From: Rhodothermaeota bacterium MED-G12
GTDB taxonomy: Bacteria; Bacteroidota; Rhodothermia; Balneolales; Balneolaceae
Reading direction: 5' to 3'
DNA: 19,273 bases
Assembly: GCA_002457365.1 (NCBI GenBank)
Contig: NTKP01000032.1
Coordinates: 1-19,273 of the forward strand
The notes below the pieces were generated by a model that was given only the letters and a program-made list of their open reading frames with translations, made no database searches and was not told where the DNA came from. A program made the translations under genes and the position numbers. This document shows, piece by piece, positions 13,043-15,832 of this stretch; positions within the stretch are counted from its first letter, which is position 1, and each line of letters begins with the position of its first letter.

Positions 13043-14386
13043 TTACCCAGAGTTTCGTTCTAAGAAATGAGTATTTCCCTGTACTCTATATAGACTTCGA
13101 GCGGTCGTAACGGTGCCTTTTCCATAGCGATTATTGATACGATCAATGGCTTGATAACGCTGAGTATGTTCGGCTTCGTCCCGAAAAAATAGATTCATTT
13201 GGCTGGTTTTATCCATGTCTTGAGTGCTTATCATTAGACTACGAATGGCCATTTTTCGCTGGCAAAAAGAGTCAATGAGTTCAGCTAATTCTCTCATGCA
13301 CGCGTCATACACATACTTGGTTATGTGAGTAAAACTAGGGGTTACAAAACGGAACCCTATGCTAGGATAGTCATTTTTGTCAAAACCAATATGCCCACCA
13401 AAGCTACTCGAACGTATGCCGTAGGCCCGCATTCGGTAGCAGATCATTTCGATTCCAATGGCTAGTTCACCTTTGATAGCTTCTGGGTCAGTACTTCCTT
13501 CGGAAAATGTATGCCCATAACTGACGCCCCATTTAGGTGAATATTCATGATTTTCCTCGAGTATTCGGCCTTGATCCTGGCCGGTAATCGTTTCAAAAAG
13601 CATACGCCCAAAATGGGGTCCAAATAGACGAACAAAGGTGTTGGGCTCATTATGGTTTACCACATCTCGTATGCGCTCATATCCTTCTGCTAGGAGATGC
13701 TCATAACGCCTTCGCCCTACCCCCCATACTTCGTTGAGCGGTAATGGGTGTATATACATTCGTTCATCTTCCTTGCTTAGAATAAGAGAAATACCGCGGG
13801 GCTTATCCAAGCCACTGGCAAGCTTAGCATAGGTTTTGGATCGAGCAATTCCAATAGATCCATACAGTCCCGTGGTTTCCACGATATCGCGTTGCAGTTG
13901 TTGCGCAAAGGTCCGGATTTGAGGTTCTTCTTTGCCCAAAAGAAAACTTGCGTCCATAAAATATTCATCCATCGAATAGCGCTCTATTTGGTGTGAGTAG
14001 CGATTCATAATATGATGTACCTGTGTTGATATAGCGGTATAGCTAGCGTAGTCTACCTGAAGCATGCATACGTAGGGGCATCGCTTGTAAGCTTCATAGG
14101 CACTCATTCCTGTTTTAATCCCCATCGAACGTGCTTCATAAGAAGAAGTGGCTACAATGCCTTTAACGGTTCCATTTTCTTTTCTCCACCCACCCACAAT
14201 GAGGGGGATTCCGTACATATTCTTTCGGAGTTGCTCTACTTGTGCGTAAAAACAGGCAAAGTCGAAATGCAAATATAAGCGGTCCTGTCGGTGTCGGTGT
14301 TGGTGTTCTGGGTATACCGTATTGTAGAGCGTAATACGATGTACATCTTGTTCGGCTTGATACGAATAGTCATTTTTTTTTGGCAT
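13043..14386 (-). CDS. dinB: Y-family DNA polymerase (DinB/Pol IV-like) with a ~34-aa His/Gln/Arg-rich N-terminal extension
   Basis: The palm motifs look intact: LYLHFDFACFYAQVEQ (first catalytic Asp at residue 42) and ERYSMDEYFMD (the D-E pair). Also present are GIVATSSYEARSMGIKTGM, SIGIARSKTYAKLAS..KP, VWGVGRR, and a little-finger region with the QMNLFF...IDRINNRYG tail. The only possible start is ATG at 14386. Confidence 0.9.
   Translation of the reverse strand: MPKKNDYSYQAEQDVHRITLYNTVYPEHQHRHRQDRLYLHFDFACFYAQVEQLRKNMYGIPLIVGGWRKENGTVKGIVATSSYEARSMGIKTGMSAYEAYKRCPYVCMLQVDYASYTAISTQVHHIMNRYSHQIERYSMDEYFMDASFLLGKEEPQIRTFAQQLQRDIVETTGLYGSIGIARSKTYAKLASGLDKPRGISLILSKEDERMYIHPLPLNEVWGVGRRRYEHLLAEGYERIRDVVNHNEPNTFVRLFGPHFGRMLFETITGQDQGRILEENHEYSPKWGVSYGHTFSEGSTDPEAIKGELAIGIEMICYRMRAYGIRSSSFGGHIGFDKNDYPSIGFRFVTPSFTHITKYVYDACMRELAELIDSFCQRKMAIRSLMISTQDMDKTSQMNLFFRDEAEHTQRYQAIDRINNRYGKGTVTTARSLYRVQGNTHFLERNSG
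14288..14305 (-). repeat. In-frame hexanucleotide tandem repeat (CACCAA CACCGA CACCGA) encoding HQHRHR in the polymerase N-terminal extension
   Basis: The plus strand reads TCGGTG TCGGTG TTGGTG at 14288-14305, which is codons 28-33 (H-Q-H-R-H-R) of the minus-strand CDS. Confidence 0.85.
14373..14381 (-). repeat. A9 homopolymer in codons 2-5 of the polymerase gene
   Basis: The plus strand has T x9 at 14373-14381. The coding strand reads ATG CCA AAA AAA AAT (M P K K N). Confidence 0.9.
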
Positions 14387-14432
14387 AAATTACTCCGCTA
14401 TTGATATGTACAATATATGTGTGTAATTTAAA

Positions 14433-14455
14433 ATGACCAAACAAATATTGGTCAT
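14433..14455 (+). promoter_or_regulatory. Perfect 8-bp inverted repeat ATGACCAA-N7-TTGGTCAT spanning both candidate start codons of the orphan gene
   Basis: ATGACCAA lies at 14433-14440, the spacer ACAAATA follows, and TTGGTCAT lies at 14448-14455. The left arm contains ATG 14433 and the right arm overlaps the in-frame ATG 14454. It could be an operator or an mRNA hairpin that occludes initiation. Confidence 0.4.
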
Positions 14456-15095
14456 GAATAACTTTCCCCTTGTCGAAATGCTTGCTTTTTTTCCCCGCTA
14501 TTCAGAGGTGCACACTTTTGATTGGAGGCGCCGCTATGTGCGGCAGGTACGTCATATTAGATCCTGCCACACTAAGACGCTAGGTGGGGTGCGATATTCA
14601 TTTTTTAGCATTGTAACTCAGCAGGGTGAAGCTATGGATGTGCGCTTTAATCACGATGAATTACTTTGGGACATAGTAGCGCTGCCTGGATCTGAGTTAG
14701 CTATACATAGCGAAGATGGCTCGCATTTTGTTATTGACCGAATACTGGTGCACCAACAGCGGCATAAGCATCAGCCTTCTCTGGCGCATCGTATGCGCCC
14801 CATCCGGTTTGAGTGGCTTCCTCACGCCCAATGCGCGAGGCAGAGCCCTATTGAATACGCCAAGGTAGACCGCATGCATCCGTATCGTTTTTTAAAAGGA
14901 AAAAATAGCTCTTATCAGGTTCATAGGATAGAAACGCGTCATCTAGAAGATGTTATGGTCACCCGGCATTTCCATTATGTTATTGAGGATACCGAGCGGA
15001 GATTCTATCATGTAGTATACATATTGGATCAGGGAGATTGGCGGTTTATACAAGAAGTAGATGAACAGTTCTTATTTCATCGGTCTAGTCCGTGA
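14433..15095 (+). CDS. Hypothetical His/Arg-rich protein with two tandem modules resembling the ImuB C-terminal (ImuB-C / DUF6504-like) domain
   Basis: It is the only long ORF in a 730-nt space, with no competing frame. It has 18 His in 220 aa. Internal duplication: aa 29-84 (FDWRRRYVRQVRHI...VRYSFFSIVTQQGEAMDVRFNHDELLWDIV) against aa 151-208 (YRFLKGKNSSYQVHRI...TRHFHYVIEDTERRFYHVVYILDQGDWRFIQ). The alternative start is ATG 14454. Function is unknown. Confidence 0.6.
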   Translation: MTKQILVMNNFPLVEMLAFFPRYSEVHTFDWRRRYVRQVRHIRSCHTKTLGGVRYSFFSIVTQQGEAMDVRFNHDELLWDIVALPGSELAIHSEDGSHFVIDRILVHQQRHKHQPSLAHRMRPIRFEWLPHAQCARQSPIEYAKVDRMHPYRFLKGKNSSYQVHRIETRHLEDVMVTRHFHYVIEDTERRFYHVVYILDQGDWRFIQEVDEQFLFHRSSP

Positions 15096-15115
15096 AAATG
15101 GGCTAAATAATATAA

Positions 15116-15832
15116 TTAGAATAACCGTAATTCGGGTTCGATAAGATGAGGCCCGTTGTTACGTACGTTCCCAACAGCAGGAGGAACGATATGGCTTTTA
15201 AGTCCATCGTCGGGATAGGGGTCCAGTAGGTAATTCAAATCTTCTATACCCAATTGTGGATTTAACCAATGAGTCCATTCAGATGAATGCAAAAAAACAG
15301 GCATACGGTCATGAATGTTTTGCATGGTTGCATTGGGTCGAGTGGTCAAAATAGAAAACGAGTAAAGAGAGTCCAATGGGCTTAAGGGAGAATAAAAGCC
15401 GGCTGCAAAAAGAATAGAGTTATTGACCGCTTGTATATAGTGAGGAGTTTTATTCCCTTTTGTACCGGACCATTCAAAAAAACCGTTCAATGGGATAAGG
15501 CATCGCTGAGTAGATACGGATCGCCACATGGGTTTTTCGGTTATTTGTTCGGACCGCGTGTTAATGGGTAGTAGGGGGAGGCTTCCTACTTTCGGTTTCC
15601 ACCCCATGAATCCCCAATGCATTGGTATCCTTATTAACTGGGGAGTATCGGTATCGGGTTGAAGGATGACCGGTACGATATGGCTAGGCGCTATATTATA
15701 AGAAGGTAGTGTATGAGCGGTATTCTGTAGATGCTGTTTTCCAAAAATTCCATCTATTTCGTTTGGTAGCGAAGATCCAATCAGTGTATCTATGGTAGTC
15801 AGGTCACTAAAAAGAGTGTATCGTCCGCACAT
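15116..15832 (-). CDS. SOS-response-associated peptidase (SRAP/YedK/HMCES family) abasic-site processing protein
   Basis: It starts MCGRYTLF (Cys2 nucleophile). YNIAPS, INTRSEQI (Glu) and IHDRMPVFL (His) show all family catalytic positions present. Confidence 0.93.
   Translation of the reverse strand: MCGRYTLFSDLTTIDTLIGSSLPNEIDGIFGKQHLQNTAHTLPSYNIAPSHIVPVILQPDTDTPQLIRIPMHWGFMGWKPKVGSLPLLPINTRSEQITEKPMWRSVSTQRCLIPLNGFFEWSGTKGNKTPHYIQAVNNSILFAAGFYSPLSPLDSLYSFSILTTRPNATMQNIHDRMPVFLHSSEWTHWLNPQLGIEDLNYLLDPYPDDGLKSHIVPPAVGNVRNNGPHLIEPELRLF

Follow-up and report, generated by a model that had tools for sequence, protein, structure and literature searches.

A probable SOS-regulated translesion-synthesis module of Balneolales pairing a Y-family polymerase with a lineage-specific accessory protein

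Modules that combine an active Y-family polymerase (PolY) with a standalone ImuB-C-type partner, without DnaE2 and under LexA control, form a described class (PMC6511836). [quoted passage not shown] Links between PolY and SRAP proteins have also been described (PMC12926913). In the accessible part of Kilic et al. (2020, PMC7739468), the Balneolaeota LexA consensus TTACACATATTTTWTACATA is validated by EMSA and the regulon takes in translesion polymerases and an SOS peptidase. The pairing of an active PolY with a small protein, the association of PolY with SRAP and a LexA regulon in Balneolaeota are thus all known already, and the initial annotation of the locus studied here, which presented it as non-canonical and differently wired, was overstated.

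The window (the whole stretch of DNA analysed, 19,273 nt) carries the three genes that had been proposed at 13043-15832, and all of them were recovered there. These are a polymerase gene, polY (447 aa; 13043..14386, minus strand), a divergent accessory ORF (220 aa; 14433-15095, plus strand) and an SRAP/YedK-type gene (238 aa; 15116..15832, minus strand). The polymerase and accessory genes are separated by 46-67 bp, depending on the accessory start. The accessory stop lies 20 nt from the convergent SRAP gene, which itself begins 17 nt past the motB stop. As previously claimed, the window lacks umuD, lexA, imuA and dnaE2, as judged by Pfam scans covering every larger ORF. We propose, with a probability of about 0.72, that this locus is an SOS-regulated translesion-synthesis module of Balneolales.

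The locus resembles the GeoPolY-like modules in its polymerase (predicted active), the putative RecA-N-terminus-like tail, the small all-beta partner (about 80-96 aa per module), the putative LexA control and the lack of ImuA and DnaE2. It differs from them in several respects: the partner falls below every DUF6504 threshold, leaving its homology only suggestive, and is fused as a tandem duplicate in the window genus; the genes are divergent instead of forming one operon, and lexA lies elsewhere; the polymerase falls in a Balneolales clade of its own; and SRAP is a recurrent third neighbour. With Pol V (UmuD'2C-RecA) and the Gram-positive YqjW-YqjX/YolD-RecA mutasomes it would share an SOS-induced Y-family polymerase, a clamp motif, a RecA-binding tail and a small accessory, predicted here to be beta-rich. 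The two-copy UmuD' dimer of Pol V is moreover mirrored by the two-domain fusion. However, the polymerase is not a UmuC orthologue, and a UmuD- or YolD-type accessory was rejected, as neither an S24 peptidase nor a YolD domain was found in the protein with Pfam and NCBIfam. Finally, the ImuA-ImuB-DnaE2 system also has a RecA-N-terminus-like motif in its Y-family member and possibly a related ImuB-C-type module. In contrast to that system, the Y-family member here keeps its catalytic residues, the C-terminal module is a separate gene, and neither ImuA nor DnaE2 was detected in the window or the five genomes checked.

The divergent promoter region contains a LexA (SOS) box, TGATATGTACAATATATGTGTG (14402..14423, plus strand), which is a direct repeat of ATATGT with an 11-bp period. 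It scored 31 bits with a matrix derived from 25 sites of related loci, and neither the window nor the draft genome contains another strong LexA site. The initial annotation did not include this operator. The consensus of the box is the reverse complement of the published one, as given in the accessible part of PMC7739468, so that the locus carries the same direct-repeat box as the Balneolaeota regulon. The same motif was found in complete relatives upstream of recA, dinB, umuDC, rarA-like, radical-SAM and uvrD-like genes and, with a weaker score, upstream of lexA of the same genus. As the shared box also precedes recA, dinB, umuDC and lexA in relatives, the polymerase-accessory pair is probably SOS-regulated; it stands under putative LexA control and would thereby be tied to DNA damage. 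A box of at least 18 bits was missing at polY in 13 of 40 loci, in some lineages. In contrast to the genes of the described regulon, the SRAP gene of the window genus has no detectable box, as judged by the matrix scan of its upstream region.

The accessory gene had been reported as a 220-aa orphan on the plus strand, transcribed divergently from the polymerase. The gene is real and conserved, but it probably starts at ATG 14454 and encodes 213 aa counted from M8 (14454..15095, plus strand), since homologues outside the genus start at MNKFPLVEM and the preceding DNA is non-coding elsewhere. The equivalent of 14433-14453 is conserved in another genus, yet non-coding. A perfect 8-bp inverted repeat, ATGACCAA-N7-TTGGTCAT (14433..14455, plus strand), covers both the upstream ATG and the likelier start codon; GACCAAAC is kept as non-coding DNA in other long-form genera. 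The protein matched no Pfam or NCBIfam family, and only 26 relatives were present among 1.84 billion representative proteins. The family is Balneolales-specific. A confident AlphaFold model based on 96 sequences (pLDDT 88.3, pTM 0.85) predicts two all-beta domains, for which Foldseek returned no match in PDB or BFVD. Other genera carry a single-domain short form of ~96 aa beside the same polymerase and/or SRAP. An HMM of this short form matched the window protein twice, at residues 28-76 from M8 (14535..14681, plus strand; E 1e-6) and at residues 139-209 (14868..15080, plus strand; E 4.7e-17), and hhalign aligned the N-domain with the short form at 93.5% probability (E 2.4e-7). As read from these alignments, the accessory protein is a tandem duplication of a predicted all-beta module of ~90-96 aa.

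Does this module correspond to ImuB-C? The initial annotation saw ImuB-C-like modules encoded in trans. The two copies of one module are upheld; no DUF6504 match was found, and profile similarity is weak. Among the profiles it named, IMS and SRAP were matched in the window, and DUF6504 was not matched on the window protein. We give about even odds to the protein being a true, highly diverged ImuB-C (DUF6504) homologue in tandem, which would make the locus a Geobacter-like member of the ‘LexA, standalone ImuB-C, active PolY’ class with an adjoining SRAP gene. This would be a refinement of the translesion-module reading and is compatible with it. The similarities include the same genomic role, the size (about 80-96 aa per module) and the all-beta character (PMC6511836, PMC12926913). 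The gene adjoins a Y-family polymerase with a LexA box, a context of the kind expected for ImuB-C; loci from Deinococcus, Rubrobacter and Methylocella served as comparison. Sequence searches for ImuB-C in the PDB returned nothing; like ImuB-C, which is without a close PDB relative (PMC12926913), the accessory model has none.

Profile alignments of the accessory with ImuB-C were collinear, kept one register throughout and exceeded shuffled controls. A profile-profile score of 19.75 (P 0.0078) was matched by 1/200 and 0/100 column shuffles, and a score of 16.3 by 0/150 shuffles (z 3.2). The C-domain together with short forms, aligned to 25 ImuB-C sequences, among them those of true ImuB encoded in ImuA-ImuB-DnaE2 operons, scored 22.15 (P 0.0015, 70 columns). 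Nevertheless, hhalign probabilities overall were just 0.5-17% (P 0.0015-0.03). Pfam DUF6504 (PF20114) matched neither the window protein nor its halves even at E 10, and no match over cut-off was found in 151 family genomes. Sub-threshold matches occurred in 6/105 relatives, the best at E 0.0083 (16.8 bits against a cut-off of 24.2), but weak matches to the unrelated families MoaF_C and DUF4467 were as frequent. The accessory family does not conserve the WW and WRG signature residues that mark ImuB-C. Homology of the accessory protein to ImuB-C is thus only suggestive.

Alternatively, although we regard this as doubtful, the accessory may not be kin to ImuB-C but represent a new fold and a new, Balneolales-only class of polymerase managers. 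A single-domain dimer, or the fused pseudo-dimer, would then adapt a third Y-family polymerase to work with SRAP, and the trio would be a dedicated SOS-induced pathway past abasic sites or SRAP-DNA crosslinks.

The distribution of the genes bears on whether polymerase and accessory belong together. Within the family, polY was found in 107/151 genomes and the accessory family in 112/151. Cross-tabulation of the two lists placed the accessory in 105 of the 107 polY genomes, a count that overstates support because related genomes are not independent. Three genomes without the polymerase have the accessory gene as short or stop-containing fragments only. The divergent arrangement of polY, intergenic region and accessory gene was present in 35/35 long-form loci examined outside the window genome. 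In the short-form loci, polY and/or SRAP adjoin the accessory gene in varying order, and the genes frequently carry separate LexA boxes. Of a further 40 polY loci, 32 have the accessory at a distance of up to about 1.2 kb and 21 have SRAP at up to 5 kb. At 8 of the 40 the accessory was not adjacent, and several such genomes carry it elsewhere with its own box. The synteny of the trio, raised in the initial annotation, thus takes the form of a conserved but rearranging neighbourhood across Balneolaceae, in which SRAP is a recurrent third neighbour of the polymerase-accessory pair.

Small lineage-specific proteins, division inhibitors among them, are frequent members of SOS regulons. The accessory could accordingly be an SOS-induced protein unrelated to the polymerase (a division inhibitor, a DNA-binding factor or a regulator), adjacent to it merely through the shared LexA operator. 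Its basic, His/Arg-rich composition (pI 8.9) would suit such a role, as would the genomes in which the short form lies away from polY under its own box. We consider this unlikely. Co-occurrence with the polymerase clade is near-perfect, with mere fragments where the clade is missing, and the adjacency survives several gene-order rearrangements. Moreover, no transmembrane segment or known DNA-binding domain was found in the accessory, and the other SOS genes of relatives (recA, dinB, umuDC) have no accessory-type neighbour.

The polymerase carries a strong IMS domain (PF00817, E 8.8e-42, 142.9 bits against a cut-off of 23.2), a weak Pfam match to IMS_HHH and a little finger (PF11799 IMS_C, residues 288-398) that passes marginally (20.9 bits against 20.7). 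Between the little finger and the C-terminal tail, the sequence reads QMNLF (residues 396-400; 13187..13201, minus strand), a candidate beta-clamp-binding motif which we take to be similar to the QLxLF clamp consensus and to the motif of UmuC. The tail itself contains a RecA-N-terminus-like segment, QAIDRINNRYGKGTVTTAR (residues 412-430; 13097..13153, minus strand). It matched Pfam DUF4113 below the cut-off (E 7.9e-4, 19.9 bits against 24) and, by eye, its ...IxxxxGKGT(V/I) pattern is like the RecA N-terminus of relatives, ALDIAVGQIEKQHGKGTIM.

In a phylogeny of the kind that the initial annotation called for, the polymerase fell in a clade confined to Balneolales and distinct from DinB, UmuC and the inactive, ImuB-like iPolY proteins (support 97/98). 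All NCBIfam DinB and UmuC models scored below their cut-offs. Identity as a DinB/Pol IV orthologue was rejected (best DinB model 192 bits against a cut-off of 389, and separate in the tree); the same genome has a separate true DinB, which groups with E. coli DinB, unlike the window polymerase. A UmuC/Pol V subunit was likewise rejected: the UmuC model gave 84.6 bits against a cut-off of 431, and the true UmuC of the family clusters apart with E. coli UmuC. Related genomes carry a true umuDC pair in addition to the window-type polymerase. Pfam found no S24 gene (umuD) beside the polymerase in the window.

Two catalytic motifs had been described as intact-looking: HFDFACFYAQVE (residues 40-51; 14234..14269, minus strand), with Asp42, and SMDEYFMD (residues 138-145; 13952..13975, minus strand), with Asp140-Glu141. 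Alignment to solved Pol IV structures bears this out, D42 and D140-E141 aligning with the catalytic Asp and Asp-Glu. In the usual DxD, the second Asp is Ala in the window polymerase and its genus, and D, N or A in relatives, so that reduced or altered catalysis is possible. UmuC has Asn at this position in alignments. The polymerase is nevertheless predicted to be catalytically active.

A catalytically impaired, ImuB-like scaffold that recruits another polymerase, which would make the locus a reduced mutasome instead of a bypass polymerase that works on its own, is improbable. The Ala substitution would fit, and the RecA-N-terminus-like tail with an ImuB-C-like partner resembles a split ImuB (PMC12926913). 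However, the metal-binding Asp42 and Asp140-Glu141 are kept throughout the clade, and each of the five genomes checked has exactly one dnaE and no second one, hence no DnaE2. UmuC is active despite Asn at the equivalent position. In addition, the inactive Deinococcus iPolY lost the entire catalytic motif and branches far from the polymerase clade. Identity as ImuB was rejected on the retained catalytic residues, the lack of DUF6504 in the polymerase and the single dnaE per checked genome.

The SRAP domain is full length (PF02586, E 1.8e-51, profile positions 1-214). All four residues previously listed are present: N91, E119 and H174 (in INTRSE, FEW and HDR) were located by alignment to solved YedK structures (6kcq, 6nuh), and C2 (MCGRY), outside that alignment, was read from the sequence. 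The protein is thus like other SRAP/YedK/HMCES members, with the Cys2 nucleophile, Asn, Glu and His, and no difference from them was seen in its sequence; the interest lies in its neighbourhood alone. As it lies 17 nt behind motB and has no LexA box, it may be transcribed here with an unrelated operon. Although these features and its convergent orientation would fit three genes that are neighbours by chance, with no functional unit, such a reading is hardly credible, because the neighbourhood is retained in many genera with differing gene orders, the genes co-occur, and, for the pair of polY and accessory with its common operator, chance is already contradicted.

Under the translesion-module reading, DNA damage would lead to RecA filaments and LexA self-cleavage, derepressing the polymerase and accessory genes. 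The accessory would bind the polymerase and serve as its regulatory or auxiliary subunit, in a role akin to UmuD'2, YolD/YqjX or standalone ImuB-C, the fused two-domain form serving as a built-in pseudo-dimer. With the help of RecA and the beta clamp, the complex may gain access to stalled forks and replicate across lesions, operating without DnaE2 or ImuA. SRAP would form part of this pathway, covalently shielding abasic sites in single-stranded DNA.

The module represents no new principle. What is new over the initial annotation is the LexA box, the Balneolales-specific polymerase clade with its clamp-type motif and RecA-N-terminus-like tail, the tandem-duplicated accessory with its near-constant co-occurrence, and the assessment of its ImuB-C homology as no more than suggestive. 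In the accessible part of PMC7739468 we found no description of the small accessory family or of its coupling to a third polymerase clade. LexA of cultured relatives has previously been purified for binding assays, according to the same part of that paper, so that the predictions are directly testable in Balneola, Gracilimonas and Rhodohalobacter. Most bacterial error-prone polymerases appear to have small partners that activate or restrain them. To our knowledge, experimental study of such pairs is confined to Pol V and the ImuA-ImuB-DnaE2 complex. The locus adds a cleanly bounded polymerase clade with an almost obligate, lineage-confined partner. Its single-domain and fused two-domain forms offer a natural comparison bearing on subunit stoichiometry, and the recurrent SRAP link bears on the interplay of SRAP and translesion synthesis in bacteria.

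Three genes lie together at positions 13043-15832: a Y-family polymerase gene (polY, 13043-14386, minus strand, 447 aa), an orphan gene referred to here as the accessory gene (14433-15095, plus strand, 220 aa) and an SRAP/YedK-type gene (15116-15832, minus strand, 238 aa). The 19.3-kb contig comes from a metagenome-assembled Balneolaceae genome that is 74% complete. Its remaining large ORFs encode a T9SS cargo protein, a TonB-receptor operon, a ferredoxin, folP, cdaA and a motAB-containing operon, and Pfam scans revealed no umuD, lexA, imuA or dnaE2 among them. The trio, identified by ORFs and Pfam, and the lack of these four genes in the window, both put forward in the initial annotation, are therefore confirmed.

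The start of the accessory gene is most likely the ATG at 14454, giving a protein of 213 aa, and homologues outside the genus open with MNKFPLVEM. We discounted 14433-14453 as coding sequence, since its counterpart in another genus is conserved yet non-coding. A perfect 8-bp inverted repeat, ATGACCAA-N7-TTGGTCAT (14433-14455), spans both ATGs, the upstream one and the likelier start at 14454, and GACCAAAC is likewise kept, non-coding, in other long-form genera (long and short forms are described below). This repeat could be a translational element or a second operator.

Neither the accessory protein nor its halves gave any usable family in Pfam or NCBIfam; a weak DUF1854 match was disregarded. 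We found 18 relatives by a word-based search of 5.8 billion proteins and 26 when 1.84 billion representatives were searched exhaustively with a profile, and the few with a source name were from Balneolales. A family-wide genome search distinguished two forms, of about 202 aa in some genera (long form) and about 96 aa in others (short form), the latter matching the C-terminal half only. Homology to the short form extends to the long form's N-terminal half (hhalign probability 93.5%, E 2.4e-7), and in the window protein residues 28-76 and 139-209 match the short-form profile with E-values of 1e-6 and 4.7e-17, respectively. Judged from these matches of both halves, the long form is a tandem duplication and fusion of the short-form module. 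The protein is basic (pI 8.9) and His/Arg-rich. With 13 sequences, AlphaFold gave a poor model (pLDDT 56.6) whose Foldseek matches were meaningless; with 96 sequences it predicted two all-beta domains (pLDDT 88.3, pTM 0.85), for which Foldseek returned nothing under E 0.01 in the PDB and BFVD.

The accessory protein had been proposed to be ImuB-C-like. The Pfam model for ImuB-C is DUF6504, a name also borne by NCBI-annotated ImuB and standalone proteins, and it matched the Caulobacter control. No DUF6504 match was obtained with the window protein, nor any over threshold across the 151 family genomes; sub-threshold matches occurred in 6 of 105 family members, with MoaF_C and DUF4467 equally frequent. 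PDB sequences searched with the accessory-family and ImuB-C profiles gave no match, so that there is no solved ImuB-C to compare. For profile-profile comparison, we used 25 ImuB-C sequences taken from Bacteroidota genomes and, by tblastn, from plasmids. The set consists of standalone proteins from one Bacteroidota family and from plasmids of Deinococcus, Thermaerobacter, Alicyclobacillus and Arthrobacter; the rest are C-termini, one from a 147-aa Rubrobacter protein whose gene adjoins lexA and dnaE2, one from a Methylocella ImuB with ImuA and DnaE2 genes on either side, and the corresponding parts of Ensifer and Nonomuraea ORFs that lack annotation. The comparison scored 16.3-22.2 (P 0.0015-0.03; probability 17% at most), always in one end-to-end register, and column shuffles reached the observed score in 1/200, 0/100 and 0/150 trials. 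For a single prior hypothesis this likeness is suggestive, not proof. We put homology of the accessory protein to ImuB-C, as read from these alignments, at about even odds.

Standalone DUF6504 genes of 78-96 aa were also found in one high-G+C Bacteroidota family (loci L050-L062), and the 1.5 kb flanking them on each side holds no Y-family polymerase. Deinococcus megaplasmids (L100, L103, L104, L106, L115) carry, one after another, a gene for LexA or an S24 protein and those for an inactive PolY, DUF6504 and DnaE2, an arrangement that amounts to a split ImuB. In one of these, the Deinococcus sp. KNUC1210 plasmid (L100), an SRAP gene also lies about 1 kb upstream.

The polY product matched Pfam IMS with an E-value of 8.8e-42; the little-finger match was marginal and those to HhH and DUF4113 were weak. 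In an alignment with solved Pol IV structures, the catalytic Asp and Asp-Glu correspond to D42 and D140-E141, which bears out at the level of sequence the intact-looking motifs first noted. The second Asp of the usual DxD motif is replaced by Ala in the window genus; clade relatives vary there between D, N and A, and UmuC carries N. Against all NCBIfam DinB and UmuC models, polY scored far under the cut-offs. The window genome also encodes a separate true DinB, and complete relatives carry DinB, a UmuD-UmuC pair and a window-type third polymerase. In a maximum-likelihood tree, in which the deeper branching order is not settled, polY fell inside a Balneolales-only clade of its own (support 97/98), separate from DinB, UmuC and the inactive polymerases that Deinococcus encodes in DUF6504-DnaE2 operons; family DinB clustered with E. 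coli DinB and family UmuC with E. coli UmuC. In view of these scores and the separate clade, assignment of polY to DinB or Pol V was dropped.

An N-terminal extension of about 37 aa (...DVHRITLYNTVYPEHQH..., 14276-14386, minus strand) precedes the palm domain and the first catalytic Asp; all of the Balneolales clade keeps it, and DinB and UmuC lack it. Just after the polY start codon comes an A9 run. Past the little finger, inspection pointed to QMNLF (residues 396-400) as a candidate clamp-type motif. The tail, QAIDRINNRYGKGTVTTAR (residues 412-430), which gave the sub-threshold DUF4113 match, looks like the N-terminus of RecA in relatives, a motif named 'RecA-NT' by Timinskas and Venclovas (PMC6511836).

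The SRAP product matched Pfam SRAP over its full length (E 1.8e-51). Every catalytic position ascribed to it was recovered: the Cys2 nucleophile (MCGRY) was read from the sequence, and N91, E119 and H174 were placed by alignment to solved YedK.

The accessory gene and polY diverge at each of the 20 long-form loci retrieved first, 19 of which lie outside the window genome; SRAP is next in line throughout the window genus and in some members of a second. Short-form genes adjoin polY and/or SRAP in several gene orders. Among 151 family genomes, which are related and not independent samples, the polY clade is present in 107 and the accessory family, as judged by a short-form profile search, in 112; cross-tabulation of the two lists showed the accessory in 105 of the 107 polY genomes. 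Three genomes lacking the polY clade retain the accessory gene as short or stop-containing fragments only (G011:C6:76533-76631, G050:C1:1246937-1247026 and G147:C7:96476-96649), which fits joint loss. Of a further 40 polY loci, 32 have the accessory no more than about 1.2 kb away and 21 have SRAP within 5 kb; an accessory gene not adjoining polY is usually elsewhere in the genome, often beside SRAP. The neighbourhood recurs in related genomes in varied gene orders, and the association of the three genes outlasts repeated rearrangement.

A direct repeat with the consensus ATATATGTATAATATATGTGTA is conserved across the aligned intergenic regions. The window copy lies at 14402-14423 (31 bits), and no other strong site occurs in the window or elsewhere in the draft genome. 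[quoted passage not shown] In the window genus, weaker copies lie ahead of the gene for a canonical 217-aa LexA. The motif is the reverse complement of TTACACATATTTTWTACATA, the consensus that Kilic et al. describe as derived for Balneolaeota LexA and validated by EMSA (PMC7739468). Given the conserved box and this match, the prediction is that a single operator in the 46-67 bp divergent promoter region places both polY and the accessory gene under LexA repression. A second, weaker box-like site in the window's own genome (19.7 bits, G000:C4:6019) lies upstream of a gene for a 681-aa UvrD-like helicase, divergent from a thymidine kinase gene, an arrangement that recurs in relatives. No box of at least 18 bits was found in polY-accessory loci L119, L121, L124-L126 and L128-L135, from several genera; those lineages may have a diverged operator or have lost it. 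No box was found upstream of the window SRAP, which starts 17 nt after the motB stop (gap 15833-15849); in the window genus SRAP may belong to the same transcript as the upstream motAB-containing operon. SRAP genes of other genera have a box to themselves or one in common with polY. At loci L098, L091 and L076 of relatives, the radical-SAM gene's box also faces a divergent gene for a secreted/lipoprotein-like protein of about 150 aa, which may be a further regulon member.

No second dnaE was found in the five genomes checked; the locus is therefore not a variant of ImuA-ImuB-DnaE2 that recruits DnaE2, and that identity was dropped. Modules of an active PolY and standalone ImuB-C without DnaE2, often with lexA, in which the polymerase bears the RecA-NT motif, have been described by Timinskas and Venclovas (PMC6511836), whose 2026 survey recognizes 11 module types (PMC12926913). 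The locus is best filed, as a variant, among the 'PolY plus small accessory subunit' modules. Its features are a lineage-specific polymerase clade, a partner that matches no family and is tandem-fused in the window genus, a box of the published LexA type and SRAP as a frequent neighbour.
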